Below are positions 22,347-55,742 of a stretch of DNA of 64,000 nt, one piece after another. The notes under the pieces were generated by a model, which ran no database searches, had not been told where the DNA came from, and saw nothing but the letters and a program-made list of their open reading frames with translations. The stretch spans positions 1-64,000 of the IMG/VR virus record IMGVR_UViG_3300017963_000032; one strand, written 5' to 3'. The stretch comes from a virus (Duplodnaviria; Caudoviricetes). Every line of letters begins with the position of its first letter. Position 1 is the first letter of the stretch. A program made the position numbers and the translations under genes.

Positions 22347-22741
22347 TGAGTGACGACGAGAAGAGAAAAGCTAAGCTGCAATTAAAAGCTTATGAAGATA
22401 AGCTTATGCAGATTGCAGAAGAGCACGGCCAGAAATGGGGAAGGGGAGTGATGGAAGCAACAGAAGAAAGATTCGCAGAGATTTACAATAAACTCATTGA
22501 CTTCTTCAACAAGGAGAATCTTCCCGTCACCATAAAAAGAAGGTTGGCTGCTGACTTAGAATATGTCGACGGCTATCCCGGACTGGTTCTAGGAGGACAG
22601 ATTGTAACCGCAGAGTTCAGACTGATGCCTCTTGACCAGACAGGCAAAGAAAAGATAGACGAGAAAGTTAACCAAGAGGTTAGCGAGATTCTCGCAAAAA
22701 AGAATGAATTACAACTGAAGTTGGAGGCAGATGCAAAATGA
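22343..22741 (+). CDS. Hypothetical protein
   Basis: Coupled ORF. Confidence 0.55.
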   Translation: MMSDDEKRKAKLQLKAYEDKLMQIAEEHGQKWGRGVMEATEERFAEIYNKLIDFFNKENLPVTIKRRLAADLEYVDGYPGLVLGGQIVTAEFRLMPLDQTGKEKIDEKVNQEVSEILAKKNELQLKLEADAK

Positions 22742-23022
22742 GACAAGGAGGATTTAAACCACCTGTTAATGAAGGTCAAGAAATAGAGCTCGAGATAATG
22801 AGCAAGGGAGCTAAAGGAGACCCTATTGGAAAAGTTGATGGTTATACAATTTTTGTTCAAGGAGACGTCAACATAGGAGAGAAGGTAAATGTCAGAATTA
22901 CAAAGACACTTGACAAGTTTGGTTTCGCAGAGATAATAGGAGATTCAGAAGAAGTTCCAGAAGAATCTGAACAAGAAAACACAGAAGATTTTGGAGAAGA
23001 TGAAAGCGGAACTGAAGATTAG
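22738..23022 (+). CDS. Single-domain TRAM RNA-binding protein (archaeal type)
   Basis: PPVNEG...GAKGDPIGKVDGYTIFV...GEKVNVRITKT...FGFAEI. Confidence 0.9.
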   Translation: MRQGGFKPPVNEGQEIELEIMSKGAKGDPIGKVDGYTIFVQGDVNIGEKVNVRITKTLDKFGFAEIIGDSEEVPEESEQENTEDFGEDESGTED

Positions 23023-37721: not shown

Positions 37722-37736
37722 TTGGAGGCGAGATAC

Positions 37737-38183: not shown

Positions 38184-38198
38184 ACGGAGGCGGAAACC

Positions 38199-39312: not shown

Positions 39313-39457
39313 AGACCTTCACAAGTACAAGAACCACACACTCAAGATAAAAATTATTGTAGAAGAGGACTTAGGAATATTCTGTGTCCACTGCAATACT
39401 AAACTAGAAGAAGAAAAAAAGATGTGCGCCAAGTGCGGGAGGAAAGTGTTACGATGA
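39197..39457 (+). CDS. Hypothetical protein with C-terminal Zn ribbon
   Basis: GGAGGCG RBS; CVHC/CAKC. Confidence 0.5.
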   Translation: MTLHEETQELHVNAVETSTCMIGKEREETKEGWISIKSKDLHKYKNHTLKIKIIVEEDLGIFCVHCNTKLEEEKKMCAKCGRKVLR

Positions 39458-40251
39458 AGATAGGAGTTATAGGTTGCGGAGTTGTTGGAGGTACAATCCT
39501 CACTGGCTATAAAGCTTTAGGTTATGATGTTCTTGGTTATGACCCTTACAAAGATGAATATATAACTACATCTTTTGATGATATAACAAAGTGTGATGTT
39601 TTATTCTTATGTTTACCAACAGTCCCAGATTCTTCAGATAAGATGATTATGAAACCTTTGGATGAAACATTTGAGAAACTAAACGAGAGAGAATACAAGG
39701 GCTTAATAATTCTGAAGTCAACAGTAATTCCCGGTACTACAAGAAAGTATGCCCTTAAATATCAGAAGCTAGATATACTCCATAGCCCGGAATTCTTGAC
39801 AGAAGCAAGAGCAACATTTGATTTCTTCTGCCCTGACAGAATAGTTGTTGGCAGCACAGACAAGTACATCAATGAACAATTCTTTGAGATTCATAAAATA
39901 TTCAACTGTCCAATAATGGAAGTTGATGCAGAAACAAGTGAGCTAGCAAAGTTCATGAGCAATGCTTTCTTTGCAACAAAGGTAAGCTTCGCAAATGAAT
40001 GGAACGAGATTGCTTTACACTACAGAGCAGACTATGATGCTGCAAAGAGAGTTCTTTACACAGACAAAAGAGTTGGAGCTGACCATCTATCCATCAATGA
40101 AGACAGAGCTTACGGTGGAATGTGTTTGCCTAAAGATGTGACACAGATAACCAAGGACTTAAATGACCAAGGGATAACACCATTGCAGCTTGAAGCTACT
40201 GATGATGTCAATGGTAGAACACAGAAATTAATCAAGAGGGATAAACAATGA
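39454..40251 (+). CDS. ugd: UDP-glucose/GDP-mannose dehydrogenase family protein (short form)
   Basis: IGVIGCGVVG; KSTVIPGT; SPEFL; KFMSNAFFATK; YGGMCLPKD. Confidence 0.88.
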   Translation: MKIGVIGCGVVGGTILTGYKALGYDVLGYDPYKDEYITTSFDDITKCDVLFLCLPTVPDSSDKMIMKPLDETFEKLNEREYKGLIILKSTVIPGTTRKYALKYQKLDILHSPEFLTEARATFDFFCPDRIVVGSTDKYINEQFFEIHKIFNCPIMEVDAETSELAKFMSNAFFATKVSFANEWNEIALHYRADYDAAKRVLYTDKRVGADHLSINEDRAYGGMCLPKDVTQITKDLNDQGITPLQLEATDDVNGRTQKLIKRDKQ

Positions 40252-40765: not shown

Positions 40766-41407
40766 ATGATAAAAGAAATCATAGACAAGCAAGCGCTTGC
40801 ACTTAATGAAAAGAACAGAGCAGGAAGAAGTCCAACAAGGAATTACTTTTATGCTTCAGAAGCTGGCAAATGCCACAGAGCAATATTCTTTAGTATGACT
40901 GGAGTGAAAGGAAAGCCTAAAGACGCTAGGACAATCAGAATATTTCAGAACGGAGACTCAGTTCATGAAAGACTCTGCAAGTATTTGAAAGAAGCAGGCG
41001 TTCTAGTTTGTGAAGAGAAAGAGATGAACAATCAATCTCCAGAGATTCATGGAAGAGTTGATGCAATCGTTGAGCTTAACGGAGAGCAGATTCCTTTGGA
41101 GTTCAAGAGCGCAAATATCAGAACTTTAGCTCAACCATATCCTGAACATGTAAAACAGATAATGCTCTACATGCACGTAGGAAATTACAAGAAAGGAATG
41201 CTCGTTTATGAATCAAAGCAGACTCAGGAAATATTTGAGTTCGAGATTGTTTATGATGAAGAGCACGCAAAGAAAATCCTAGAATCATTCAAGGAAGTTG
41301 AGGAGTGCTACAAGAAGAACGAGACTCCAAAAAGAGCAGATGTAATGGTCAGAGCAAAGTACCCATGTACTTACTGTGATTATGCAGACGAGTGCTGGAA
41401 GGAATAA
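40766..41407 (+). CDS. cas4: Cas4-like PD-(D/E)xK exonuclease (stand-alone)
   Basis: ASEAGKC; GRVDA; EFKS; Q...Y; CTYCDYADEC Fe-S ligands; no CRISPR array in window. Confidence 0.8.
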   Translation: MIKEIIDKQALALNEKNRAGRSPTRNYFYASEAGKCHRAIFFSMTGVKGKPKDARTIRIFQNGDSVHERLCKYLKEAGVLVCEEKEMNNQSPEIHGRVDAIVELNGEQIPLEFKSANIRTLAQPYPEHVKQIMLYMHVGNYKKGMLVYESKQTQEIFEFEIVYDEEHAKKILESFKEVEECYKKNETPKRADVMVRAKYPCTYCDYADECWKE

Positions 41408-42395: not shown

Positions 42396-42612
42396 TATAG
42401 ATTTACAATGGTTGCTTGGATTACCAGCATACATTAGGTGTCCAAAGTGCAAGGAGAAAACAAGAAGCTGGTTTGATGATTATGACATTGACTGCGGAGA
42501 ACCTCAATCTAAAGATGGAGTCATGACATTGGATGTACAATGTGACCATTGTGAGGAAGAGATACAGTTCAAAGTAGAAATAAAACAAAAGGAGAGTGAT
42601 TCAGATGAGTAA
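42385..42612 (+). CDS. Zn-finger protein
   Basis: CPKC...CDHC. Confidence 0.55.
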   Translation: MGHNIDLQWLLGLPAYIRCPKCKEKTRSWFDDYDIDCGEPQSKDGVMTLDVQCDHCEEEIQFKVEIKQKESDSDE

Positions 42613-43366
42613 GTTAGTATTCGCAGACATTGACTTTTTTAAGAAAGCAATGAAATCAATAAGTGTTTTGTTATTGGAAGCAACAATAGAGCTTGACCAA
42701 GAAGGTATGAGAATCAAAAGCATGGACCCTGCAAACGTGGCCATGGTTGATTTCTACATCAGGGCTGATACTTTTCCAGAGTATGATGTGAAAGAAGAGG
42801 GAGAAAAGCACACATTCAAGGTTGAGACTTTGCTAGCATTCTTGAAAAGAGCTAATGCAAAAGACATAGTGACTCTAGAGTTTGATGAGAAGATGCACGT
42901 AAAGATTAAGAGCGAGAACAATAAAGAGTTCGGAACTACATTGATTGGTATTGAACCAGACAAAACTCCAGACACTGTCAAGTTAGATTTTGATTTTGAA
43001 ACAACAATGCCTACAGAACAATTCAATTCAGTATGCAATGATATTGCAACCATGGGTGACAGTGTGGTGCTTGTTGGAGATAAGGAAAGGATTGTCATGA
43101 GGGCAGAATCTGACAAGATGGTTGATAGCTTTGGAGAGATTAAATTGTCAGCTGATAACAAGGTAAAGATGAAGGAAGGAGTTGAAGCTGCAAAGGTCAA
43201 GCTGAGTTCGGAGTATATCAACAAGATTGTAGACTCAATCAAGAAGATAACAGAGAATGTTAAGATTCAGTTTGGAAATGATTATCCAATACTATTGACG
43301 TATTCAATGGCAGATAGAGCTTCTATAAGCTTCTTGGTTGCTCCAAGGGTGGACAATGAGGGATGA
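42605..43366 (+). CDS. pcn: PCNA sliding clamp
   Basis: SMDPANVAMVD; FLVAPRV C-terminus; about 253 aa. Confidence 0.92.
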   Translation: MSKLVFADIDFFKKAMKSISVLLLEATIELDQEGMRIKSMDPANVAMVDFYIRADTFPEYDVKEEGEKHTFKVETLLAFLKRANAKDIVTLEFDEKMHVKIKSENNKEFGTTLIGIEPDKTPDTVKLDFDFETTMPTEQFNSVCNDIATMGDSVVLVGDKERIVMRAESDKMVDSFGEIKLSADNKVKMKEGVEAAKVKLSSEYINKIVDSIKKITENVKIQFGNDYPILLTYSMADRASISFLVAPRVDNEG

Positions 43367-43603: not shown

Positions 43604-43654
43604 TCTTACAAAAACGAAAGATTTATATAGTAGTTATACTTACCTATACGTAAG
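43604..43654 (+). promoter_or_regulatory. BRE-TATA promoter with CTTAC-N6-GTAAG palindrome
   Basis: CTTACAAAAACGAAAGATTTATATA, then CTTACCTATACGTAAG (43639-43654). Confidence 0.7.
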
Positions 43655-43678: not shown

Positions 43679-44401
43679 ATGAAAGTACCAAAATTCCCAA
43701 GCATAAAAGGTGTTGAATTGTACCTAGTAGGCGGATGCGTGAGAGATTCCCTAATGGGTCAGACTCCAAAAGATTTGGACTATGTTATGATAACAGACAA
43801 GTCTTTCGAAGAAGTCGTAAAGCAAATATCAGAGACACCTAACTGCAAAGTATTCCAAGCTAAGGCAGAGTTCTTAACAATCAGATGCAAGATACAAGAC
43901 CAGATAGTAGACTTAGTCATGCCAAGAACTGAAGAAGGATACTCAGACCATAGAAGGCCAGACGAAGTTAAAGGAACAGATTCTCTATTTGAAGATTCCA
44001 AGAGAAGAGACTTCACTATAAATTCAATGTACATGGACAAAGAAGGAACCATACTTGATTATCATAAAGGAGTGGTTGACCTGAAGAATAAAGTCATCAA
44101 GTGCGTAGGCAACCCAAGGGAAAGATTCCAAGAAGATTACCTAAGAATACTCAGAGCTGTCAGGTTCTCTTGCAGGTTTGGATTCAAAATAGATAAGAGC
44201 ACACAAAATCATATGATTAAATTATCAGAGAGATTAACTGATGTTGAACAGAACAGAGTCAGGGAAGAACTAAACAAATCATTGAAGGCAAATCCTAAGT
44301 GGACTATGAAATACATCGAAGCATTGAACTTATATAAAACATTATCAGAATTAGGATTACATTTTGAGCTTAGCTCTAAGGGGGGAGAAAATGATAAGTA
44401 A
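43679..44401 (+). CDS. cca: Class II tRNA nucleotidyltransferase (CCA/poly(A) polymerase family)
   Basis: VGGCVRD...KDLD; RRDFTIN; EDYLRILRAVRF. Confidence 0.9.
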   Translation: MKVPKFPSIKGVELYLVGGCVRDSLMGQTPKDLDYVMITDKSFEEVVKQISETPNCKVFQAKAEFLTIRCKIQDQIVDLVMPRTEEGYSDHRRPDEVKGTDSLFEDSKRRDFTINSMYMDKEGTILDYHKGVVDLKNKVIKCVGNPRERFQEDYLRILRAVRFSCRFGFKIDKSTQNHMIKLSERLTDVEQNRVREELNKSLKANPKWTMKYIEALNLYKTLSELGLHFELSSKGGENDK

Positions 44402-44825
44402 AGCTATGATGTTTGCATTCGAGAAACATAGAGGACAACTATGTGACGAAGGAAAACCATACATACTGCACCCATTCAAGGTTGCAGATATAGTAAGGCT
44501 AGTCACAGATGATAAAGAAATTATTGCAGCTGCATACCTGCATGATACAATAGAAGATACAGCAACAACTTACGACGAATTAGTTGAAGAGTTCAGCAAG
44601 AGAGTTGCAGACTTAGTGATGGAAGTATCACATGAAGGACAGAAGGATGAAGTAGGATATTATTTTCCTAGATTGAAAACACAAGGAGGAATCATGCTCA
44701 AGTTCGCAGATAGATTATCCAACCTCTCAAGGATGAGCGCTTGGGATGATGGAAGAAAAGAACATTATTTAAGAAGGTCAAGATTTTGGAAAAGGAAACC
44801 CGGGGACAGGTGGGAGAAAAAATGA
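44391..44825 (+). CDS. HD-domain hydrolase (SpoT/MESH1-like)
   Basis: KHRGQ...PYILHP...LHDTIEDT...KFADRLSNL. Confidence 0.88.
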   Translation: MISKAMMFAFEKHRGQLCDEGKPYILHPFKVADIVRLVTDDKEIIAAAYLHDTIEDTATTYDELVEEFSKRVADLVMEVSHEGQKDEVGYYFPRLKTQGGIMLKFADRLSNLSRMSAWDDGRKEHYLRRSRFWKRKPGDRWEKK

Positions 44826-45013
44826 AGTTTGCAGAAATGATTTATTGGAATCAGCATAGCTATGGAAAAGCGTTCAGGATAAAGAGAAGCATAATCATTA
44901 CTTGTGGCATTGCGCTCTGCCTCCTTACGTTTGGTACTAACTGGCTGATTCCTTTTCTGCATAAGATAATCAAATCAGATATTGTAATAAGATACGGAGG
45001 CGAGATACTATGA
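44822..45013 (+). CDS. Small membrane protein
   Basis: Hydrophobic helix; coupled ORF. Confidence 0.45.
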   Translation: MKFAEMIYWNQHSYGKAFRIKRSIIITCGIALCLLTFGTNWLIPFLHKIIKSDIVIRYGGEIL

Positions 45014-45228
45014 GTGAACCACAAAAACATAACAAAGAATTCATCGACGAGACAAGGAAAGCTCTTGAAGAAAACTTGAAGGGAATGTGCAACAAGAAGG
45101 CAACAGTGAGAAAACTTATTGACTTAGACAAAAGAAGCAGAGTCATAATCACTAAGGAAGTCAAGGCACTTAGAACAAAACATAAAGAGATTGAGAAGGA
45201 AGTACTAGGTTCAATATTTAAAGATTAA
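45010..45228 (+). CDS. Hypothetical protein
   Basis: GGAGGCG RBS. Confidence 0.55.
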   Translation: MSEPQKHNKEFIDETRKALEENLKGMCNKKATVRKLIDLDKRSRVIITKEVKALRTKHKEIEKEVLGSIFKD

Positions 45229-45248
45229 ACCGAAAGCTTTATATTTAT
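45226..45248 (+). promoter_or_regulatory. BRE-TATA promoter for Y RNA-Ro60 locus
   Basis: AACCGAAAGCTTTATATTT about 25 nt upstream of first repeat. Confidence 0.65.
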
Positions 45249-45269
45249 GTTGTCATTTTCATGTTGTTC

Positions 45270-45357
45270 GGGTGGCGTAGAATAGGGTTACTTCGCTTGA
45301 AACGAAACCAAAATAGGCTGTAAGAGCCTATTGTCTATACCCTGTTTGATTGTACCC
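45270..45357 (+). ncRNA. Y RNA-like ncRNA 1
   Basis: GGTGGCGTAG-N5-GGTTACTTCG motif; 5'/3' pairing AATAGGGT/ACCCTGTT and GGGT/ACCC; upstream of Ro60. Confidence 0.65.
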
Positions 45358-45374
45358 CCACAACTCATGTTCAT

Positions 45375-45499
45375 GGTGGCGTAGTCGAGAGTTACTTCGA
45401 CTCGTAATCGAGAGGTCGCAGGTTCGAATCCTGTCATGTGCTTCGGCACGTGTAGCTCAGTTTGGTAGAGCGCTAACGTACTCTCGACGACTGTTCCCC
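45375..45499 (+). ncRNA. Y RNA-like ncRNA 2 (YrlA-type tRNA mimic)
   Basis: GTCGAGAGT(T)AC/GTACTCTCGAC stem enclosing anticodon arm, T arm GCAGG-TTCGAAT-CCTGT, tetraloop-closed acceptor stem and D arm. Confidence 0.85.
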
Positions 45500-45538
45500 T
45501 TCATAATCATAAGCACTAAGGTACCAGATTGACAGTAT

Positions 45539-45600
45539 GCGGTGACGTAAACAAGGGATACTTCGTTCCTAAGAAAAGACCCTCGTTGCTTGTTTCCCGC
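45539..45600 (+). ncRNA. Y RNA-like ncRNA 3 (minimal)
   Basis: GGTGACGTAA-N4-GGGATACTTCG variant; GCGG/CCGC closing stem. Confidence 0.55.
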
Positions 45601-45619
45601 ATTCATTATCATAGTCATT

Positions 45620-45733
45620 GGGTGGCGTAGTAAAGAGTTACTTCGGTAAAAAACAAACTTCAAAATTTGTTCAACTGGTTCAAATCCAGAATCCCTTCGG
45701 GGTTTCAAAACGTACTCTTTACGTCCGTTCCCC
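45620..45733 (+). ncRNA. Y RNA-like ncRNA 4 (T arm and closed acceptor stem, no D arm)
   Basis: GTAAAGAGT(T)AC/GTACTCTTTAC stem; CTGG-TTCAAAT-CCAG; AATCCC-TTCG-GGGTTT. Confidence 0.7.
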
Positions 45734-45771
45734 CGGACAATTTAATAAATAAGAACATGAGGTGTTTGAAC

Positions 45772-47319
45772 ATGAGTAAATACAACAAGCCTACTAGAGG
45801 CAAAGATAAGACTGTAAACCACGAAGGAGATGTGGCTTACAAATTGGATAGCAAAACAGAACTGTATTCTACAGTCTGCACATCAATGTTGCAGAACAAG
45901 TTCTACGAGAAAGAAGATGAAACTCTGAATAGAATCAGAACTCTCATCAAGACTACAGACCCAGAGTTTGTGGCTAAGCTAGCAGTGTATGCAAGAGAGA
46001 AGATGTACCTTAGAAGTATACCTTTAGTCCTTGCAGTTGAGCTGGCAAAGGTCCACAACGAGGACAGCATTCTTGGAAGAACTGTTAGCAGAATAGTCCA
46101 AAGGGCTGACGAGATAACAGAGATTCTAGCTTACTACAAAGAAGCTAACAAGGATAACTGGGAGACTGAAAAGAATTCTGGAAAGACAAAGCATCTTGGA
46201 AGATTATCAAAGCAGATAGCTAAAGGTCTGAACTTTTCTTTTAACAAGTTCGACGAGTACCAGTTTGCTAAGTACAACAGAAAGGGCCAAGTTACTTTGA
46301 AGGATGCACTATTCCTAGTTCACCCAAAGGCAAAGAATAAAGAGCAGCAAAAACTGTTTGATAAGATTGTCAATGGAGAACTAAAGACACCTGAAACTTG
46401 GGAAGTTAAGATGAGTGAAGGTGGAAAGGAAGGAGCTGACAAGAAAGAAGTCTGGGAGAAAATGATTAGCTCAGGCAAGATGGGTTACATGGCAATGCTG
46501 AGAAACCTAAGAAACTTCTTGGAAGCTGACGTGAGCCAGAAGCACATGGCTGATGTAGCGCAGACTCTTGCAGACCCTGAGAAAGTTAGAAAGAGCAAGC
46601 AGTTACCATTCAGATTCTTGAGCGCTTACAAAGAGCTGAAAGGAAACAAGAGCTCTAAGGCTACAATGATTTTGAACGCTCTGGAAGAAGGAGTGATTAC
46701 AAGCATTGAGAACTTGAAGGGCTATGATTATAACACAACTGTTTGCGTAGCTTGTGATGTTTCAGGAAGTATGCAGCATTCAATCAGTGACAGAAGCAAG
46801 GTCGAACTTTACGACATTGGATTGCTACTTGGTATGCTATTGCAGTCAAGATGCAAGAGTGTAATCACTGGTATATTCGGAGACACTTGGAAGATTAAAG
46901 CACTTCCTCAAAAGAGCGTCTTGCAGAATGTGATGGACTTGCATAACATCGAAGGAGAAGTTGGTTACTCAACTAACGGGTACAAAGTAATCCAAGACTT
47001 AATCACTAGAAAGGAGAAAGTGGATAAGATTATGATATTCACTGACTGTCAGATGTGGAACAGTTACTCTGGAAGTAGAGGAAGCTTTGCTACTTGTTGG
47101 TCTGAATACAAGAAGATTCATCCAGAAGCAAAACTCTACTTGTTTGATTTGTCAGGTTACGGAAACACTCCTGTATCTGTTAAAGGAGATGGAGTTTACT
47201 TGATTGCAGGATGGAGCGAGAAAGTCTTTGATATGCTAGCTGCAATAGATAAGGGCAGTAATGCAGTGAAGGAGATTGAAAGCATCGACTTGTTCAAGAA
47301 ACCAAGCAAGAAGAAATAG
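45772..47319 (+). CDS. rsr: Ro60/Rsr RNA-binding protein (TROVE + vWA)
   Basis: NHEG..AY; DEYQFAKY; PETWE; YMAMLRNLRN; QLPFRFLSAY; MIDAS DVSGSM; FTDCQ. Start moved to ATG 45772 (GAGGTG RBS) because upstream codons overlap ncRNA 4. Confidence 0.95.
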   Translation: MSKYNKPTRGKDKTVNHEGDVAYKLDSKTELYSTVCTSMLQNKFYEKEDETLNRIRTLIKTTDPEFVAKLAVYAREKMYLRSIPLVLAVELAKVHNEDSILGRTVSRIVQRADEITEILAYYKEANKDNWETEKNSGKTKHLGRLSKQIAKGLNFSFNKFDEYQFAKYNRKGQVTLKDALFLVHPKAKNKEQQKLFDKIVNGELKTPETWEVKMSEGGKEGADKKEVWEKMISSGKMGYMAMLRNLRNFLEADVSQKHMADVAQTLADPEKVRKSKQLPFRFLSAYKELKGNKSSKATMILNALEEGVITSIENLKGYDYNTTVCVACDVSGSMQHSISDRSKVELYDIGLLLGMLLQSRCKSVITGIFGDTWKIKALPQKSVLQNVMDLHNIEGEVGYSTNGYKVIQDLITRKEKVDKIMIFTDCQMWNSYSGSRGSFATCWSEYKKIHPEAKLYLFDLSGYGNTPVSVKGDGVYLIAGWSEKVFDMLAAIDKGSNAVKEIESIDLFKKPSKKK

Positions 47320-47520
47320 AAAGCTTTAAATATTTCTTTATTATTCTTTTTTTGTTTTATTTGAAACTAGGTGATTAAAGCAATATGTTATACAACACGA
47401 CAACCGGAATGTGTACATCAGACTTACTTAATAGTCTGGCGTCTCATTGATTCGGGCCTGTCGTTGTTAAACTTTTTCTGCGCTTTGTTGTTTGATGACG
47501 ACAAGGCAAAGCTATATCAT

Positions 47521-47605
47521 ACCGAGGTCGGATAGCGGTCAATTCCAAAGGGCTCATGACCCTTCGCTCATCAGAGCTGCGCAGGTTCAATTCCTGCTCT
47601 CGGTA
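47521..47605 (+). tRNA. tRNA-Met(CAT), initiator-like, long variable arm
   Basis: ACCGAGG/TCTCGGT (A1:U72); AAGGG-CTCATGA-CCCTT; variable stem GCTC/GAGC. Confidence 0.85.
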
Positions 47606-47613
47606 TCTTTTAT

Positions 47614-47685
47614 GCCTTCAGAGTGCGTGAGGTAGCACACCTGACTGTTAATCAGGAAGTCCAAGTTCGACTCTTGGTGAGGGCG
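47614..47685 (+). tRNA. tRNA-Asn(GTT)
   Basis: Cloverleaf; CCTGA-CTGTTAA-TCAGG. Confidence 0.9.
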
Positions 47686-47690
47686 TTCAT

Positions 47691-47828
47691 AGGCGGGTGC
47701 CAGAGCCCGGTTGAATGGGCTGGACTTAGGAGCCAAATGGCTTGGTCAAAGGGCCACACTCAAAACCGATAGCTTAGAAATCCAGTGCGGTAGCGCTAAA
47801 CACGTGGGTTCGAATCCCACCCCGCCTA
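47691..47828 (+). tRNA. tRNA-Leu(TAG) with 49-nt intron (47731-47779)
   Basis: CTGGA/TCCAG stem, long variable arm, relaxed BHB at 37/38. Confidence 0.85.
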
Positions 47829-47834
47829 TCAAAT

Positions 47835-47964
47835 GCCGAGGTTGAGCAGCTGGTAGCTCGCTGGTCTGCTGATTAACTCAGCCCAGAGTGGAGTTCCGGG
47901 TTGTTAGCCCAGAGTTGAAAACCAGTTCCCTTGCGGTCTGCGGGTTCGAGTCCCGTCCTCGGCG
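47835..47964 (+). tRNA. tRNA-Ser(GCT) with 48-nt intron (47872-47919)
   Basis: GCCGAGG/CCTCGGC, G73, CTGGT/ACCAG stem, 14-nt variable region. Confidence 0.75.
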
Positions 47965-47968
47965 TTAC

Positions 47969-48041
47969 GGGCAGGTAGCTCTAATGGTAGAGCGGTTGGC
48001 TTGCATCCAACAGGCTTCGGGTTCGAATCCCGACTTGTCCA
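47969..48041 (+). tRNA. tRNA-Ala(TGC)
   Basis: G3:U70 present. Confidence 0.95.
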
Positions 48042-48094
48042 TAAGCTCTCCAGCAAGGATACTGTCAAGTGAGAGTTAAAAAGTCCTTGCGTAT

Positions 48095-48167
48095 GCTGGC
48101 GTGGCCTAATTGGTATGGCAGTTGCCTTGTAAGCAGCCGAATGGGGGTTCGAGTCCCTCCGCCAGCT
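48095..48167 (+). tRNA. tRNA-Thr(TGT)
   Basis: Cloverleaf; U73. Confidence 0.92.
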
Positions 48168-48170
48168 TTC

Positions 48171-48243
48171 GGCACTATGGACAAGCTGGTAAGTCGTCAG
48201 GTTGCAACCCTGAAGAACGAGGGTTCAAGCCCCTCTAGTGCCT
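48171..48243 (+). tRNA. tRNA-Cys(GCA)
   Basis: Cloverleaf; U73. Confidence 0.92.
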
Positions 48244-48268
48244 TAATTCTACCATTTATAAACAAATC

Positions 48269-48319
48269 TCTTACAAAAACGAAAGATTTATATATAAGCT
48301 ATGCTTACTAATATGTAAG
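48269..48319 (+). promoter_or_regulatory. BRE-TATA promoter with CTTAC-N6-GTAAG palindrome
   Basis: Same CTTACAAAAACGAAAGATTTATATA as at 43605; CTTACTAATATGTAAG (48304-48319). Confidence 0.7.
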
Positions 48320-48334
48320 ATGGAGGCGAGCAAT

Positions 48335-48487
48335 ATGAATGACGAACCATGGGCAAAAGGATATGTCAGCCCAACAGTATGCGCTGACGGAGAAGACTCT
48401 CATGAATGGGAGAATACAGTTATGGTAGAAAATGGCTGTATAGAAATACCAGTAAGGCACTGCAAGAAGTGCGGATTTTATATGTAA
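48335..48487 (+). CDS. Small Cys/His protein (50 aa)
   Basis: GGAGGCG RBS; C..HEW...CKKC. Confidence 0.5.
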   Translation: MNDEPWAKGYVSPTVCADGEDSHEWENTVMVENGCIEIPVRHCKKCGFYM

Positions 48488-48504
48488 AAATGGAGGCGAG
48501 AAAT

Positions 48505-49065
48505 ATGAGAAAAACATTATATAAGGAGACGAAAACAACTGGCTGCGAGATGGAAGACGGCAGCGACACAAGAAAGACTGAATCAACTTTGATTTTGGTC
48601 AATGAATCGGAAGAGGAATCCTACCAAGACCACGTGGCTGATGAAGCAGGAAGTCAAGACTACAGTTACCAGTTCAATAACAAAGCAATCATAACTCTTG
48701 AAGATGGAGATTGGGATAAGGTTGCAGACCTTCTTGAAGCTGAAGGCAAGATAGCCAAAGCAGAGAGTGAAGAGTATAATGGATGGACTAACAGAGAGAC
48801 ATGGGCAGTAAAGCTGCACTGGGACAACAACCAAGGAGATTACGAGTCTCTGATTGATAGAACAAGACAGATGAAAAAACAAGGTAAGTCACCTTATAAC
48901 TTAGCATCAGAATTAAAAGAGTATGCTGAAGAAGCATTCAACATGATGTTTGAAGGCCAGAAACTTCCAGAGCAAACAGCACACTTCATCAATGATGTGG
49001 GCAGCCTTTGGAGAGTTAATTGGAAATAGATTGCTGAAGCTTACTGGTCAGAGGTGGAACTATGA
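48505..49065 (+). CDS. Viral protein with YNGWTNRETW motif; in-frame TAG at 49027
   Basis: GGAGGCG RBS; frame continues IAEAYWSEVEL to a TGA overlapping the next ATG. Confidence 0.55.
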
Positions 49066-49403
49066 AAAAGAAAGAGCGGAAGGTTTACGAGGACGAGGCA
49101 AACAACAAGATATTTTTTGACATCAGGAAGTACATGAAGAACTTAACCAACAGCGTGATAGACCAAGATGCAGAAGCTTCATACTATATCCAAAGAGAGA
49201 TAAGCATCCATAGGCTTTGGGATTATCATGAAGGAGAGGTTCTAGAAATCTTGAAGAAAAATCCAGAAGTCACAGAGATATTCAAGGTTGAGAAGATAAA
49301 AGATAGGGGCCATCTCACAACTTATGTGCAGTTCAGAGGAGAAGCGGAAGTCAGCACTGGATATGACAGGATATTCATCAAGAAGATGGAAGTGGTAAAA
49401 TGA
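49062..49403 (+). CDS. Hypothetical protein
   Basis: Coupled ORF. Confidence 0.55.
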   Translation: MKKKERKVYEDEANNKIFFDIRKYMKNLTNSVIDQDAEASYYIQREISIHRLWDYHEGEVLEILKKNPEVTEIFKVEKIKDRGHLTTYVQFRGEAEVSTGYDRIFIKKMEVVK

Positions 49404-50296
49404 ATACTTGGAAGACCTTCAATAAGTATGTTGATTTCCACAAGAAAGGATTGGACTTGGGCTTAGAGCCTTACACTATTGGAGAGCCTGAAGAGACATT
49501 CATAGAGAAATTAGATAACACCTTCGCACACGGCAAAGTCTTTGATATAAATGAAGATGTTAAGGATTTGCTTTTGAGAACTAAAGGGACAAAGGAGATT
49601 GACAAAGTACCTTTTGAGAGTATCTTTATTGATACAGACTTTGATGTTTCAGAGTTCAAGGAGAAGCAAGACAATGATGACATAACAAGCGTTGCAGGAT
49701 TGCTCGTATCTGTGGCCAACAAGGTAGAGATAATAGAGAACAAAGAATATGTGAAGAACTCAACTCTAGACTTGAAGACATTAAGGGGTGCTGAAGGATT
49801 CAAGATATACTGGCTCGGGCTAGACAAAGGAAAGATAGGTTATTGCTTTCACACAATCAACATAGTCAACAAGAACAATCTAGACATGGAGTTTGAGATT
49901 AGCAGCAAGACACCTAAGATAAGAAAGTTCCTTATTAATTTTGTCAGCAACTTCTTGAACTTACTTAACAATCCTCAACCAGACATAGTAATCACAGAAA
50001 GAAAAGCCAACGAAGCAAAGAACAAAAGATTGATTAGACATGGACAGATTCCAATGCCAACTAAAAGTGTTGTGCTCATGATTGGAAAATTAAAGATATA
50101 CCTTGACCAGCTCCGAAGTAATGGGTACATGTCTTACTCTCATAAGTTCTGGGTCAGAGGCCATTGGAGAACTCTTAGAGATGAGGACCGATGGGGAGAA
50201 AAGGTAGGAACAAAATTATGGATTCACCCGTTTGTGAAGGGAAGCGGAATCCTAATTGACAAGAAATACAATGTTACCAAGGAGGCGGAAGCATGA
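49400..50296 (+). CDS. Viral protein with C-terminal VRGHWR motif
   Basis: HKFWVRGHWR motif seen in many phage proteins of unknown function. Confidence 0.6.
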   Translation: MNTWKTFNKYVDFHKKGLDLGLEPYTIGEPEETFIEKLDNTFAHGKVFDINEDVKDLLLRTKGTKEIDKVPFESIFIDTDFDVSEFKEKQDNDDITSVAGLLVSVANKVEIIENKEYVKNSTLDLKTLRGAEGFKIYWLGLDKGKIGYCFHTINIVNKNNLDMEFEISSKTPKIRKFLINFVSNFLNLLNNPQPDIVITERKANEAKNKRLIRHGQIPMPTKSVVLMIGKLKIYLDQLRSNGYMSYSHKFWVRGHWRTLRDEDRWGEKVGTKLWIHPFVKGSGILIDKKYNVTKEAEA

Positions 50297-50559
50297 ATGG
50301 AAAAGAATTATGGATGAGGATATTCAACACAGACTTTGAGGAAGCAGTCTTATCTCATCTAAACTTAGAAAAGAACTTTGAAGATGAAGGAACTGACGAA
50401 GAGAACAAAGAGATTGTAGAGGCTCTTGAAGGAAAAACCTTGCAAGACATGATAGATTATAGGTGTCAATATTTTGGATATGGAATTGATTCAACAGATA
50501 TAAGAGACATGATTGAGCAACTCCAGATAGAAGACATAAAGGAAATAAAAGGGTGGTAA
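50293..50559 (+). CDS. Hypothetical protein
   Basis: GGAGGCGG RBS. Confidence 0.55.
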   Translation: MNGKELWMRIFNTDFEEAVLSHLNLEKNFEDEGTDEENKEIVEALEGKTLQDMIDYRCQYFGYGIDSTDIRDMIEQLQIEDIKEIKGW

Positions 50560-50560
50560 T

Positions 50561-51445
50561 ATGGCAAAAGAAAAATTCAGAGAGAAACTACATCTCTCAC
50601 CAAAGAACAAGAAACAACTTGAAGTTATCAATGAAATTATAGATGAGTACGCAGCAGAAGGTTACAAGCTAACATTAAGGCAGCTTTATTACCAGTTAGT
50701 GTCCAGAGACATAATCCCTAACAAACAATCAGAGTATGCAAAACTTAGCAACTTACTTGTTAAAGGAAGGATGGCTGGTGTTGTTGACTGGGAAGCTATC
50801 GAAGACAGAATCAGAGTACCATTTATTCCTTACTGGGTACATGGAGTTAAGGATGCAATAGATGACACAATCAGTCAGTACAGATTAGACAGGCAAGACG
50901 AACAAGAAGTTTACATAGAACTCTGGGTAGAGAAGGACGCATTGTCAGGAGTGCTGAAGAGAATCACATCACACTATCATATCAATTTGATGGTTAACAG
51001 AGGGTACAGTTCTTGCACTGCAATGCATGATGCATACAAAAGATTCAGAACACAAGCTATAGCCAATGAGAAGAAGATTGTAATACTGTATCTTGGAGAC
51101 CACGACCCAAGCGGTCTGGATATGATTAGAGATATAAGGGACAGGTTATTTGAGTTCGGAGTTGATGTAACAGTCAAACCAATAGGACTTACTATGGCTC
51201 AGATTAAGCAATACAATCCACCACCAAACCCTGCAAAGATTACAGACCCAAGGGCAAAGGATTATATCGAAGAGCACGGAAACACTTCATGGGAAGTTGA
51301 CGCTCTGAATCCTAAAGTCTTGCACCAGTTAGTAAGAACAAATGTCGAAGGCATGATTGACATGGGCTTGTTCGAAGAGATGCTAGAGAAAGAGAAAGAG
51401 CACAAGAAAGAACTGGAGAGACTGCGTGAGGAAAGCAAAAAATGA
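50561..51445 (+). CDS. Topo VI-A/Spo11-like TOPRIM protein
   Basis: TLRQLYYQL; WVEKDAL; RGYSS; YLGDHDPSG; WEVDAL. Confidence 0.8.
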   Translation: MAKEKFREKLHLSPKNKKQLEVINEIIDEYAAEGYKLTLRQLYYQLVSRDIIPNKQSEYAKLSNLLVKGRMAGVVDWEAIEDRIRVPFIPYWVHGVKDAIDDTISQYRLDRQDEQEVYIELWVEKDALSGVLKRITSHYHINLMVNRGYSSCTAMHDAYKRFRTQAIANEKKIVILYLGDHDPSGLDMIRDIRDRLFEFGVDVTVKPIGLTMAQIKQYNPPPNPAKITDPRAKDYIEEHGNTSWEVDALNPKVLHQLVRTNVEGMIDMGLFEEMLEKEKEHKKELERLREESKK

Positions 51446-52227
51446 AGGAGAAGATTAAAGGACTCTGCAAGCAGATAGAGAAAGAAAAAGGAATCAAGAT
51501 ACTATTTGCTGTAGAGAACGGAAGCAGAGCTTGGGGCATGGAGAGTGAAGACTCAGACTATGACATCAGGTTCGTCTATCACAGGGAAGTCAAGGACTAT
51601 CTTTGCCTGAACCCAAGTGATGAAGTAATCAAAGCAAGCTTCGATAAGGAAGGAAACAAAGCTCCAGCTGAAGGATGTTTCTTTGATATTGTAGGATTCG
51701 ATTTGTTCAAGTTCGCAAGGATGTTGAGCAGCTCTAACCCTCAAGTCATTGAATGGCTTTGCACGGACATTGTTTACTTAGGAAAGCAGAACAAAGTGTT
51801 CCAAGAGTATGCAGAGAAGTGCTTCAAGCAAATCAGTTTGTACTATCATTACAAGAGCATGTGCAAGCAGAACTATTTGAAGTATTTAAAGTCAGGCAAT
51901 CTAGTTACATACAAGAAGTATCTATATGCAATGCGAGGATTAATCAACGCAAGGTATGTAGCTAACTTCAAAGTATTGCCGCCTATAAACTTCATTCAAA
52001 CATTGGAGACTCTTGATAAATTACTTCCTTTGTATGTTGTTGAAAGGTTGAAACAGATTGTTGAGCTCAAGAAAGAAGGAAAAGAAAAGGACATCATAGA
52101 GAACGAGACCAAGATAGATAATTACATTGAGGAGTTCTTGAAGGATGACAGCGAAGCTCCAAAAGAGAAGAAGCTTTCAACACAGACAGAGCTCAATCAA
52201 GAAGTACAAAAAATATTGGGGGTGTAA
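51442..52227 (+). CDS. RlaP/YcgL-like Pol-beta superfamily nucleotidyltransferase
   Basis: AVENGSRAWG.ESEDSDYDIRFVY; YYHY..M; KKYLYAMR. Confidence 0.85.
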   Translation: MKEKIKGLCKQIEKEKGIKILFAVENGSRAWGMESEDSDYDIRFVYHREVKDYLCLNPSDEVIKASFDKEGNKAPAEGCFFDIVGFDLFKFARMLSSSNPQVIEWLCTDIVYLGKQNKVFQEYAEKCFKQISLYYHYKSMCKQNYLKYLKSGNLVTYKKYLYAMRGLINARYVANFKVLPPINFIQTLETLDKLLPLYVVERLKQIVELKKEGKEKDIIENETKIDNYIEEFLKDDSEAPKEKKLSTQTELNQEVQKILGV

Positions 52228-52229
52228 GG

Positions 52230-52601
52230 ATGGTTGAAATATTGTTTAAACAATTCGTGATAGTGCCTAAGAGACCTAAGATGTCTCCCGGTAAGATTGC
52301 AAGCCAAGTAGCTCATGCAACATTCATGGCACTTGAGAATCAGAAGGAACTCAATAAGCATCAAACAGATATTATAGACACTTGGAAACATAACGGGATG
52401 TGTGTCATAGTATTGCAATGCAAGAGCTCATCACAGTTGATGGGGATTGCTAAGTACTTGGACCAATGGAAGATTCCAAACCATCTTTACATTGATGAAG
52501 GGATGACAGAGGTTGAGATGGGAACTCCTACAGCTCTTGCAACAGGCGTACTTCCTTTAGATAAACATTGGATGCTTGGTCAGTTGGAGTTGTTAAAATG
52601 A
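52230..52601 (+). CDS. pth2: Peptidyl-tRNA hydrolase, archaeal/eukaryotic Pth2 type
   Basis: KMSPGKIASQVAHA; DEGMTEV..GTPTA. Confidence 0.88.
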   Translation: MVEILFKQFVIVPKRPKMSPGKIASQVAHATFMALENQKELNKHQTDIIDTWKHNGMCVIVLQCKSSSQLMGIAKYLDQWKIPNHLYIDEGMTEVEMGTPTALATGVLPLDKHWMLGQLELLK

Positions 52602-53700: not shown

Positions 53701-53895
53701 CCAAAACATTTAAATATATGTAAGAGTTTCTCGCAAATTATGAGTACCGTAATTTGGAAAAGGGATAGAGAACAGGGCATCGGGATAGTCGATGTGCCGT
53801 TTCAATATCATCAGTGATTCCAGAGCTGCGGTCAAGACCTTCTAAAATTTTATTCAACCCCTCGAATCGTTTTGTATCGCAGTTCTAATTTATAT

Positions 53896-53967
53896 GCCCC
53901 TATGGTGTAGCAGCAATCACACTCGATTTTCGGTCGAGTAACTTGGGTGCGAGTCCCAATGGGGGTG
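53896..53967 (+). tRNA. tRNA-Glu(TTC)
   Basis: CTCGA-TTTTCGG-TCGAG; atypical D loop and TGCGAGT T loop. Confidence 0.8.
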
Positions 53968-53971
53968 TTTC

Positions 53972-54045
53972 GGGCATGTGGTCTAATCTGGTAGGTCACT
54001 TGGCTTACATCCAAGAAGGTGCAGGTTCAAATCCTGTCATGCCCA
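53972..54045 (+). tRNA. tRNA-Val(TAC)
   Basis: Cloverleaf; A73. Confidence 0.92.
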
Positions 54046-54150
54046 TCCAGCGCTGAGCGGAGAAGCAGGTTCGAGTCCTGTCAGCTTCAGATGAGTGCGC
54101 ACATAAAATATCTGAAGATGTGGTGTATTGGGAGAGCATACCGCTTTATT
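54046..54150 (+). ncRNA. Circularly permuted tRNA-like element (3' half precedes 5' half)
   Basis: AGCGG-AGAA-T arm-CAGCTTC-A ... GAAGATG-TG-D arm-A-CCGCT; halves pair as acceptor (6/7) and anticodon (5/5) stems. Confidence 0.7.
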
Positions 54151-54222
54151 GGGGTATTGGTGTAATGTGTAGCATCCGTGCCTTGGACGCACGAGACAGA
54201 GGTTCGATTCCTCTATGCCCCA
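54151..54222 (+). tRNA. tRNA-Pro(TGG)
   Basis: Cloverleaf. Confidence 0.9.
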
Positions 54223-54227
54223 TAAAT

Positions 54228-54298
54228 GCCTGTGTGATGTAATGGCAACATACATGCCTGTCCAGCATGAACCTCGGGTTCGATTCCCGACACGGGCG
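54228..54298 (+). tRNA. tRNA-Asp(GTC)
   Basis: Cloverleaf; G73. Confidence 0.92.
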
Positions 54299-54301
54299 TA
54301 C

Positions 54302-54412
54302 GGTGCTGTGGCGCAACTGGTGAGCGCATCCGGCTGATAAGGAGCGTGCAGAGCTTATATGCACAGTTGCGAAGAGTCTGGAAGGCTAAGGGTTCAAGTC
54401 CCTTCAGCACCA
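54302..54412 (+). tRNA. tRNA-Ile(GAT) with about 37-nt intron (54340-54376)
   Basis: TCCGG/CTGGA stem; BHB central helix imperfect. Confidence 0.8.
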
Positions 54413-54417
54413 TTCAT

Positions 54418-54525
54418 AGGCGTGTAGTCTAACGGACAGGACTCTTGGCTTCTATGCAGTGCATGGCTAGGAAGAAGTCATGTCGAAGAGACCAAGGAAT
54501 CTGGGTTCAAATCCCGGCACGCCTA
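54418..54525 (+). tRNA. tRNA-Arg(TCT) with 36-nt intron (54455-54490)
   Basis: BHB helix CTTC/GAAG perfect. Confidence 0.9.
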
Positions 54526-54529
54526 TTAC

Positions 54530-54612
54530 GAGCAGGTCGCATAATCTGGTATTGCACTGGACTTTTAATCCAGAGCCATTAGGCATCGAGGGTTCAAATC
54601 CCTTCCTGCTCA
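54530..54612 (+). tRNA. tRNA-Lys(TTT) with long variable arm
   Basis: CTGGA-CTTTTAA-TCCAG; variable stem GCC-ATTA-GGC. Confidence 0.85.
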
Positions 54613-54616
54613 TCAC

Positions 54617-54691
54617 AGCCCCGTAGTGTAGATAGGACAATCATCTTAGACTTTGAATCTAGGGACGGCGGTTCGAATCCGCCCGGGGCTA
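54617..54691 (+). tRNA. tRNA-Gln(TTG)
   Basis: A1:U72 archaeal Gln signature. Confidence 0.92.
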
Positions 54692-54695
54692 TCAT

Positions 54696-54776
54696 GGTGC
54701 AGTTGGTGTAAGGGTTATCATAGCACGGAAGACTGTGACTCTTCAGGACCGGGTTCGAGTCCCGGATTGCACCCCA
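54696..54776 (+). tRNA. tRNA-His(GTG) with encoded G-1, C73 and CCA
   Basis: GAAGA-CTGTGAC-TCTTC; long D loop. Confidence 0.88.
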
Positions 54777-54777
54777 T

Positions 54778-54849
54778 GGGATTATAGCTTAACCGGGAGA
54801 GCACCTCGCTGAAGACGAGAAGGTCCGAGTTCAAATCTCGGTAATCCCA
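54778..54849 (+). tRNA. tRNA-Phe(GAA)
   Basis: Cloverleaf. Confidence 0.92.
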
Positions 54850-54915
54850 TTAAAAGAAGAGAAGAAGAAAAGGGTTCCCCCCGGACCCCCCTCCCAAAAG
54901 AAGAAGAGAAGAAAA

Positions 54916-55413
54916 ATGGACTACGCAATTTTCAGAAAGACCCTGTCAAAGGAGGAGTTCTTTGGCAAGTGGACTAGGGATGATTTTGCTAGCGCAAGCG
55001 ATGCAGACAAAGAGAAGGGATATAATGATTATGTTGTGAAGAGCATTGTATTTCAGAGGGATGGTTTTAAATGTCAGAATGTGAACTGCGAGCATCCACA
55101 CAGTGGATTAACTCTTCACCATATAAAACATCAAAGGAACGGGGGAAAGACAACAGTAAGGAACTGTATAACAATTTGTTTAAGATGTCATGAGTTGTTT
55201 AACAAGAAGGCCATAGGCCTAACGTTCGCTGACAGACCAGAGCTGCCAGCTCACGTAAGGAACAGGACTTTTAAGATTAACAAGGACAACAGTATTAATT
55301 GGAAACAAGTTAGAGCGGAAGGAAAGAAGATAAGAAAACAGAACAAAGAGCATCATGGTTATAGGATTAGCTGGGAGATGATGCTTAAACTAATCAGATT
55401 TTTGAAACTTTAA
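54916..55413 (+). CDS. HNH endonuclease inside tRNA cluster
   Basis: RDGFKCQ...LTLHHI...GG...NCITICLRCH. Confidence 0.88.
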   Translation: MDYAIFRKTLSKEEFFGKWTRDDFASASDADKEKGYNDYVVKSIVFQRDGFKCQNVNCEHPHSGLTLHHIKHQRNGGKTTVRNCITICLRCHELFNKKAIGLTFADRPELPAHVRNRTFKINKDNSINWKQVRAEGKKIRKQNKEHHGYRISWEMMLKLIRFLKL

Positions 55414-55414
55414 T

Positions 55415-55487
55415 GCGTCCATATCCTAATCTGGCAGGGAACTCGGCTTCCACCCGAGGTATGCGGGTTCAAATCCCGCTGGGCGCA
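55415..55487 (+). tRNA. tRNA-Gly(TCC)
   Basis: Cloverleaf; A73. Confidence 0.92.
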
Positions 55488-55491
55488 TCAA

Positions 55492-55562
55492 CTCCTCTTG
55501 GTGTAAGGGCTGCATAACTGGCTGTAACCCAGCAGGACTGAGTTCGACTCTCAGAGAGGAGA
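55492..55562 (+). tRNA. tRNA-Tyr(GTA), archaeal type
   Basis: C1:G72, short variable loop. Confidence 0.9.
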
Positions 55563-55610
55563 TACATTTAAATATGAGTGTACATTACTTGGTCTACACT
55601 CAATATTAAA

Positions 55611-55742
55611 GGGAGCGTAGTGTAACGGCACCACGTTGGACTCCAGATTCTAGGGTAGAGTTTAACACCCTCCGCCCAAAGAATACCCCTCGGATAACAA
55701 AGGAGAAACCCAAAGATGCTGGTTCGAATCCGGCCGTTCCCA
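55611..55742 (+). tRNA. tRNA-Trp(CCA) with 61-nt intron (55647-55707)
   Basis: BHB helix CTCC/GGAG with 3-nt bulges. Confidence 0.9.

Follow-up and report, generated by a model that had tools for sequence, protein, structure and literature searches.

A minimal class II tRNA nucleotidyltransferase within a probable tRNA-end maintenance gene set of a candidate DPANN virus

We describe a group of tRNA-related genes in a tailed virus, IMG/VR record IMGVR_UViG_3300017963_000032. The stretch analysed (the window) is the first 64 kb of the 79,464-bp record, which has direct terminal repeats and is rated complete, and all coordinates of this virus are positions in that window. Between 43,679 and 52,601, two gene pairs (a class II CCA-type nucleotidyltransferase with an HD hydrolase, and an RlaP-family nucleotidyltransferase with the peptidyl-tRNA hydrolase Pth2) flank a Ro60 gene, a Y-RNA-like gene and tRNA clusters. 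A first-pass annotation of this DNA had named these four enzymes and a TRAM protein, and all five genes were found where it placed them, with strong family scores. The reading that we favour, with a probability of roughly 0.6, is that the genes make up a loosely clustered viral set for tRNA-end maintenance, of a kind that has already been described, in a probable DPANN virus, and that the set makes use of the EndA and RtcB of the host. The observations on which we build are domain identities, intact catalytic motifs, gene order, gene origins and co-occurrence in relatives.

The proposed scheme is that four separately acquired enzymes, lying among tRNA, Y-RNA and Ro60 genes, would constitute an archaeal-virus version of the repair and ribosome-rescue toolkit of phages. 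The minimal nucleotidyltransferase would add or rebuild the 3′-CCA on the 19 viral tRNAs that do not encode it and on tRNAs with clipped ends. The HD protein, a SpoT-type hydrolase, would remove 3′-pyrophosphate, either from alarmones that host RelA/SpoT homologue (RSH) enzymes make or from tRNAs pyrophosphorylated at the CCA end. RlaP, a gene taken from the host lineage, would add one or two nucleotides to the 3′-OH ends of damaged RNA, and the divergent Pth2 would free tRNA from peptidyl-tRNA dropped by stalled ribosomes. It is plausible that the kit serves as a counter to host defence.

The class II tRNA nucleotidyltransferase (hereafter the CCA protein) is a 240-aa protein encoded on the + strand at 43679..44401. 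It matches the head family PF01743 (PolyA_pol) at 7e-32 (110.8 bits) and PF12627 at 3.5e-8 (33.5 bits), spans positions 19-228 of the 396-position CCA model NF009814 (3e-54), and aligns to residues 56-257 of the 420-aa Planococcus enzyme 6ibp (2.4e-35). An AF2 model of the protein (pLDDT 94.8) superposes on class II CCA enzymes with a TMq of 0.79 and a TMt of 0.52. As modelled, the protein comprises a head and a neck only, and the body and tail are not present. In the class II enzymes that have been studied, it is the body and tail that hold the acceptor and T arms and fix the elbow of the tRNA in place (PMC3925840). The CCA protein keeps the GGxVRD and DxD metal carboxylates of motif A and the RRD of motif B, and ten residues are invariant across 30 short homologues (G18, G19, R22, D23, D32, D34, D78, R109, R110 and D111). 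Also invariant among the short homologues are E152, D153 and R156 of motif D, the EDxxR element with a role in nucleotide selection (PMC3925840).

Some 70 homologues, 229-246 aa in length, show 42-55% identity and have a common conserved C-terminus. In a tree of 124 sequences, 76 of the 80 short forms group on one side and are separated from the full-length bacterial enzymes (SH-aLRT 89 and 95), and a profile of the clade, run against 1.84 billion representative proteins, returned more than 110 short clusters among its best 150. The many homologues of similar length, their conserved C-terminus and their separate clade argue that the short form is not a truncation artefact. The short enzymes form a lineage of their own, observed almost exclusively on virus-like contigs. 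They are already catalogued as phrog_24229 (245 positions), and we found no paper on head-plus-neck-only class II enzymes in the literature. A search for a trans-acting tRNA-binding partner among the small open reading frames (ORFs) flanking the gene in seven short-enzyme contexts revealed no mutual similarity. Some short enzymes occur as fusions: four proteins (P0363, P0373, P0372 and P0392) include forms in tandem with an HD-bearing full Cca (612 and 1312 aa), and the same protein set holds one protein with four head domains in 1455 aa and a 378-aa fusion to ankyrin repeats. We regard this clade as the most interesting part of the gene set, since its members retain all the catalytic motifs without the domains thought necessary for holding tRNA, and the family offers a test case for the least protein that is needed for CCA addition.

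The enzyme is of bacterial type, which supports the suggestion of the first-pass annotation that it is of foreign origin in this setting. A candidate host genome encodes a class I archaeal CCA enzyme (290 bits, above cut-off), and the best matches of the viral protein in species-representative cellular genomes are full-length bacterial enzymes, including those of Bacillota and Patescibacteria, at no more than 44% identity. Among 61 genomes of the candidate host class, a class II enzyme is present in one, on a virus-like contig. Only one short member was found in a genome bin; its 7-kb contig is virus-like and part of a metagenome-assembled genome (MAG) of that same class, and the protein is labelled Candidatus Nanoarchaeia by one source.

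The gene neighbourhoods of related viruses indicate which associations are conserved. Six independent short-enzyme contexts were read for 10 kb on each side, and tRNA counts are limited to those flanks. Pth2 is adjacent to the short CCA gene or within 1.5 kb of it in four of the six (L005/L006, L008/L009, L010 and L012), in both gene orders; Ro60 occurs in two, PNKP with an Rnl-type ligase in two (L005 and L012), and tRNA arrays, of 8 and 18 genes, in two. What is conserved is therefore the pairing of short CCA and Pth2 genes, which Ro60 and RNA-repair genes often join. The co-occurrence check proposed in the first-pass annotation thus comes out partly in its favour: the association holds for Pth2, Ro60 and the RNA-repair genes, and for the tRNA array in two of the six; the CCA-HD and RlaP-Pth2 pairs do not recur. 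The short-CCA viruses also carry a family B polymerase and a RadA-type recombinase. In L012, an MJ1316 domain protein, a PHA02142/Rnl-type RNA ligase and PNKP lie at 3380-8479 of that locus, upstream of the CCA-Pth2 pair. The MJ1316 domain is associated with the recognition of RNA cyclic ends, and the L012 gene set amounts to a full heal-and-seal pathway, which the virus studied here lacks.

The HD protein (44391..44825, + strand, 144 aa) has an open frame from a TTG at 44364, but its likely start is the ATG at 44391, which follows a GGGGGGAG run and gives an 11-nt overlap with the stop codon of the CCA gene. It matches PF13328 (HD_4) at 1.6e-15 (57.6 bits) and positions 1-126 of TIGR00691 at 6.8e-24, and aligns to structures of Rel, SpoT, MESH1, the (p)ppApp hydrolase Aph1 and small alarmone hydrolases (SAHs). 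Residues H27, H51-D52, E55-D56, D107, R108 and N111, which make up the HD, ED and DRxxN motifs, are invariant. By family and motif, the protein is classed as a RelA/SpoT-type SAH and not as an HD domain of the Cca type. More than 1000 homologues of about 140-150 aa were found, with up to 70% identity. The first-pass annotation had treated the CCA and HD genes as coupled, and a functional pairing of the two is not supported: the HD protein is SpoT-type, an HD gene is found beside the short CCA gene in none of the six relatives, and three contexts of HD homologues, all on phage-like contigs, have no CCA gene nearby. The pairing is therefore local to this virus. A +1 programmed frameshift joining the two proteins was considered and rejected, given the conserved C-terminus of the short enzymes and the presence of an ATG and a purine-rich run in the overlap. 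A complex prediction for the two proteins scored 0.02, which counts neither way. In L103 and L104, the loci of the closest HD homologues, genes for a KTSC domain protein, Cpn10 and a 107-aa RF-1 domain protein lie nearby. The last is of the small peptidyl-tRNA hydrolase type, and the set could be another translation-rescue assortment.

There is nonetheless a concrete possible link between such a hydrolase and tRNA ends. Stand-alone phage SAHs neutralise toxSAS toxic RSH synthetases, and SAHs strip the pyrophosphate that toxSAS enzymes place on the tRNA CCA end (PMC7229694; 10.1101/2021.04.30.441581); by analogy, the viral HD protein might act in the same manner. Substrates are plausible in the host lineage, because RSH enzymes are encoded there: HD_4 is found in 7 of the 61 candidate-host-class genomes and a RelA_SpoT synthetase domain above cut-off in 6. 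Four genomes of 0.8-1.3 Mb (G001, G004, G031 and G039; loci L099-L102) have RSH-like frames of 628-701 aa with both hydrolase and synthetase domains, and some genomes of the class also carry extra small synthetase-like ORFs. To our knowledge, alarmone enzymes are not usually expected in archaea. With RelA/SpoT-type enzymes in some DPANN genomes and a SpoT-type hydrolase in the virus, conflicts in archaea over alarmones or tRNA pyrophosphorylation become open to test.

RlaP and Pth2 have different histories. RlaP (51442..52227, + strand) is a Pol-beta nucleotidyltransferase of 261 aa that matches positions 1-244 of the 249-position profile PF10127 (3e-52, 178.1 bits against a cut-off of 23) and keeps the Pol-beta GS...DSDYD motif. 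It is 56-68% identical to proteins named Woesearchaeota, Nanoarchaeia, Nanoarchaeota or 'archaeon', and some of these are encoded on 1.0-1.3-Mb contigs, next to housekeeping genes such as Rpb4 and L21e. On this identity to DPANN chromosomal genes, the viral RlaP is a recent capture from the host lineage, and it is the best clue to the host. RlaP is sporadic in the candidate host class (5 of 61 genomes) and has no RNA-repair neighbours there. The ORF upstream of the DPANN chromosomal RlaP was compared with the two ORFs of about 295 aa upstream of the viral gene and is unrelated to them. In biochemical work, RlaP adds one or two nucleoside monophosphates to damaged RNA 3′-OH ends (bioRxiv 10.64898/2025.12.29.696909). 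The association with RNA ligases from which the RlaP family takes its name is not seen in this virus, which has neither PF09414 nor RtcB.

The 123-aa Pth2 gene (52230..52601, + strand) starts 3 nt after the RlaP stop codon. Its product scores 80.7 bits with PF01981 (1e-22; cut-off 23) and carries the GKxxSQxxHA and DEGxTE motifs; against the NCBIfam equivalogs it reaches 73.2 (cut-off 126) and 59 (cut-off 82). The cellular Pth2, which is present in 55 of the 61 host-class genomes, scores 123-153 bits. The low scores of the viral protein relative to those of the host class, together with its 30-35% identity to the Pth2 that accompanies short CCA genes in related viruses, mark it as the divergent product of an old viral gene. 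The supposed coupling of RlaP with Pth2 is likewise a local adjacency, as none of the relative loci holds RlaP. In one Salmonella phage a CCA gene lies near RlaP. The DUF7205 protein beside RlaP in Salmonella phage SalP219 has no pairwise similarity to the viral Pth2.

The tRNA genes constitute the presumptive substrates of the set. ARAGORN (with introns) and Infernal together identified 19 tRNAs, and a twentieth, an intron-bearing tRNA-Leu(UAG), was read by eye at ~47691-47829. Cluster 1 (47520..48243, + strand) comprises Met, Asn, Leu (intron), Ser (intron), Ala, Thr and Cys, none of which encodes CCA. Cluster 2 (53895..55742, + strand) comprises Glu, Val, Pro, Asp, Ile (intron), Arg (intron), Lys, Gln, His (CCA encoded), Phe, Gly, Tyr and Trp (intron), and has an HNH endonuclease gene inside it (54916-55413; PF01844, 7e-7). 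As first reported, tRNA-His alone among the 20 encodes its CCA. The introns of the five interrupted genes (Leu, Ser, Ile, Arg and Trp) are 36-61 nt long, an archaeal size, and lie in or next to the anticodon loop. Two further genes are longer than normal, tRNA-Met (47520-47607; 88 nt, with an A1-U72 acceptor end) and tRNA-Lys (54530-54612; 83 nt). In both, the variable region has an additional hairpin and no intron was called in the anticodon loop; the hairpins could be non-canonical introns or true extra arms.

Beside the first tRNA cluster lie the genes of an RNA quality-control system. The Ro60/TROVE RNA-binding protein (45667..47319, + strand) matches TROVE at 2.4e-38 and phrog_850 at 8e-63, and is 31-35% identical to the Ro60 of the related viruses L008/L009 and L010. 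Upstream of it, at 45399..45496 on the + strand, is a YrlA-like Y RNA with a tRNA-like part, whose match to RF02553 (43.8 bits, E 3.7e-7) is below the Rfam gathering score of 69. ARAGORN called a tRNA-Thr(cgt)-like element at 45369-45442, overlapping this gene. The stand-alone TRAM-domain protein (22738..23022, + strand; 94 aa; PF01938, 6.6e-13) is encoded 21 kb from the island, and its link to the kit is unproven.

The virus does not carry all the functions that its tRNAs would need. The absence of RtcB, which had been reported for the window, extends to the whole 79,464-bp record, and a PF09414 RNA ligase, an AAA_33 kinase and a tRNA splicing endonuclease were not found in the complete record either. 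With no ligase, kinase or splicing endonuclease of the virus's own, intron removal and any sealing must use the host EndA and RtcB. The first-pass annotation had raised the possibility of a host with a reduced RNA-processing kit. This is contradicted by the gene content of the lineage, which has a class I CCA enzyme, Pth2 in 55 of 61 genomes, and, among the four host-class genomes tested, RtcB in all four and EndA in three. The virus would thus duplicate functions that its host already has, rather than fill gaps in a reduced host.

We conclude that the virus probably infects a DPANN archaeon of the Woesearchaeota/Nanoarchaeia lineage. Apart from RlaP, an archaeal host is indicated by tRNA introns in a virus with no splicing endonuclease, by an archaeal/eukaryotic-type PCNA sliding clamp (42596-43366, just upstream of the CCA gene), by a Cas4-like PD-(D/E)XK nuclease (40766-41407, also upstream of the CCA gene), and by an excess of the sequence TTTATATA. 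One such box lies at 43622..43629 on the + strand, 50 nt upstream of the CCA gene. The window holds nine copies against 3.6 expected (about 2.5-fold), a number reached in 1 of 100 shuffles, and the element is possibly an archaeal TATA promoter element. Very few viruses of DPANN archaea have been characterised.

Several considerations weigh against the view of these genes as a tRNA-end maintenance kit of a DPANN virus. The lack of the body and tail makes the substrate and product of the minimal enzyme uncertain, and in four of the six relatives the 10 kb on each side of the short CCA gene contain no tRNA gene. Because the CCA-HD and RlaP-Pth2 pairs do not recur, and because the genome is compact and carries its genes on one strand, adjacency says little. 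RlaP leaves a 3′-OH end and RtcB needs a 3′-phosphate, a mismatch noted in the same biochemical work (bioRxiv 10.64898/2025.12.29.696909). The host assignment depends on a single host-derived gene and one related viral contig in a Nanoarchaeia-class MAG. The activities and substrates of all the enzymes, and any anti-defence role, are what we infer from sequence. Finally, we know of no tRNA-targeting defence shown in the Woesearchaeota/Nanoarchaeia lineage.

There are multiple alternative scenarios. One is that no module exists, and that unrelated auxiliary genes have become neighbours through genome compactness: the CCA enzyme would mature a burst of CCA-less viral tRNAs, the HD protein would degrade host alarmones to oppose a stringent-type shutdown, and Pth2 and RlaP would add housekeeping capacity. 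This is the main rival, possible though less likely than the reading that we favour. The redundancy of the viral copies with the class I CCA enzyme, Pth2, RtcB and EndA of the host lineage would fit, as would the close HD homologues (60-70% identity) on phage-like contigs that have no CCA gene, the lack of RNA-repair neighbours around the DPANN chromosomal RlaP, the long RSH enzymes of the candidate host class, one of them in a genome with a near-best RlaP match, and the unrelated ORFs that separate the two gene pairs. However, the adjacency of short CCA and Pth2 genes has been kept in relatives despite changes of gene order, and two relatives combine these genes with PNKP and an RNA ligase, which are enzymes of repair and not of supply. 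Ro60 with Y RNA is moreover a quality-control system, and RlaP prefers damaged RNA in vitro. A different question is whether the nucleotidyltransferase adds CCA at all, or instead puts A or short tails on other RNAs (Y RNA, mRNA or host tRNA fragments) or acts in conflict with the host. The missing body and tail and the scarcity of nearby tRNA genes in relatives would be compatible with such a role; poly(A) polymerases have the same head and neck motifs, and the E. coli poly(A) polymerase is the second-best solved relative. We consider it unlikely, however, since the top family and structure matches (NF009814 and 6ibp) are CCA-adding enzymes, the clade conserves EDxxR as well as the stretch from motif A to motif B, and the enzyme accompanies Pth2 and tRNA arrays.

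The remaining scenarios give the HD protein a larger part. The 240-aa and 144-aa proteins might form a complex equivalent to a two-part E. coli-type Cca, in which the HD protein replaces the body domain and the complex combines CCA addition with 2′,3′-cyclic phosphodiesterase and phosphatase activities. The 11-nt start/stop overlap and the purine-rich run suggest coupled translation, the summed length of 384 aa is near that of a full Cca, and SAH enzymes can be RNA 3′-phosphatases on tRNA ends. Such a split Cca is nevertheless highly improbable: the HD protein matches HD_4 and TIGR00691 rather than the Cca HD domain, and NF008137 aligns to the nucleotidyltransferase part only (positions 2-199). 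Nor do the neighbourhoods favour it, with HD beside the short enzyme in 0 of 6 relatives and a CCA gene in 0 of 3 HD contexts. In a Rosetta-stone search, none of the fused short enzymes carried HD_4, their partners being ankyrin repeats or a PF01966-bearing full Cca, and the short enzyme stops at a C-terminus conserved throughout its family. A bolder version of our own reading, which we think decidedly unlikely as it stands, is that the 240-aa enzyme is self-sufficient in tRNA 3′-end repair and that, with the coupled hydrolase, it counters RSH-type toxins in DPANN archaea by stripping the 3′-pyrophosphate and rebuilding CCA. If true, this would give a first indication that toxSAS-style warfare over tRNA ends exists in archaea, and the enzyme would be a naturally minimal CCA-adding enzyme able to do without tRNA-anchoring domains.

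The rest of the genome is that of a compact tailed virus with nearly all genes on the + strand. Tailed-virus markers include a tail tube (777-1745), a large terminase (57805-59487) and a Mu F-like protein (59938-62133). After the tail genes, a single ORF of 3200 aa at 6779-16381 probably encodes a giant tail or adhesion protein. A sugar-metabolism block at 23164-32394 and 35355-40251 includes at least three glycosyltransferases, a methyltransferase, a phosphomannomutase-like protein and a UDP-glucose dehydrogenase-like protein, the last 33-36% identical to its counterparts in the related viruses L005 and L008. A sequencing-run search found identical DNA in one sediment and one seawater metagenome, from two studies, and listed no RNA dataset with this DNA; one or the other metagenome may come from the source sample. 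A search of IMG/VR for relatives by the large terminase gave none, and one by the CCA protein gave two distant loci only.

Between the two gene pairs are five tightly packed ORFs (48406..51445, + strand) of no tRNA-related family, for which the assignments are leads only: a DUF7249 protein, a 113-aa ORF, an AcrVA2-like protein of 298 aa, an 88-aa ORF and a 294-aa member of a phage family. The 298-aa protein (49400-50296) has no Pfam match, and its nearest ESM Atlas clusters carry PF26125 (AcrVA2-like anti-CRISPR; feature score 0.98, TM ~0.6). It is possible that an anti-defence gene lies amid the tRNA island. The 294-aa protein (50561-51445), just upstream of RlaP, belongs to phrog_6247 ('DNA topoisomerase'), and its Atlas leads suggest a TopoVI-A/Spo11 Toprim-like fold. 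Proteins of Flavobacterium psychrophilum phages share 57% identity with it, and such identity to bacterial-phage proteins is odd for a virus of archaea.

Finally, the parts of the set can be compared with known enzymes and the whole with known viruses. The CCA protein shares the head and neck fold and the catalytic and nucleotide-selecting motifs of class II CCA-adding enzymes (Planococcus halocryophilus 6ibp/7otr, B. stearothermophilus 1miv); unlike them, it is without the body and tail (~160 aa), and the short forms are a separate clade. The HD protein resembles the phage SAHs PbcSpo of PVP-SE1 and PaSpo of SSU5 (Jimmy et al. 2020) as well as Aph1 (7smg), which are single-domain HD hydrolases of ~140-150 aa with the same motifs, and differs from them in occurring in a virus of archaea. 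In the multifunctional Cca of E. coli, too, a nucleotidyltransferase is followed directly by an HD-superfamily hydrolase, but here the two are separate proteins, the hydrolase is of the HD_4 rather than the PF01966/Cca type, and relatives do not keep the two together.

Among viruses, jumbo phages encode RNA ligases, RlaP, a CCA-adding enzyme, PTH2 and ROT/TROVE, with the same logic of repair and ribosome rescue (Iyer et al. 2021, PMC7824862). RlaP, a CCA-type enzyme, PTH2 and a TROVE protein are all present in the genome studied here. In the jumbo-phage toolkit RlaP tracks RNA ligases, whereas this virus has no ligase; the element of an RNA ligase with an end-healing kinase/phosphatase is absent from it and present in the relatives L005 and L012. 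It also differs from the jumbo phages in its size of only 79 kb, its archaeal host and its RlaP taken from the host lineage. HGTV-1, a haloarchaeal tailed virus with a published tRNA-metabolism gene set (Liu et al. 2021, PMC8651126), is similar in having tRNAs for all 20 amino acids, some with introns, together with a class II CCA-type enzyme, an RlaP-like protein and Ro60/TROVE. It has 36 tRNAs, and its RtcB, TROVE and RlaP-like genes lie within 8 kb, with an HNH gene between the TROVE and RlaP-like genes. HGTV-1 differs in its full-length CCA-type enzyme (~448 aa), its own RtcB and Rnl2 ligases and its LysRS, whereas the virus studied here has the minimal enzyme, Pth2, an SAH-type HD protein, no ligase and probably a DPANN host. 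Acidianus tailed spindle virus encodes a class II enzyme of 450 aa along with a polynucleotide kinase; Pth2 was not found in it or in HGTV-1. The kit as a system is therefore already known in kind, and its presence here extends the tRNA-repair and ribosome-rescue toolkit of phages to a probable DPANN virus, with the stripped-down CCA enzyme as the unusual part.

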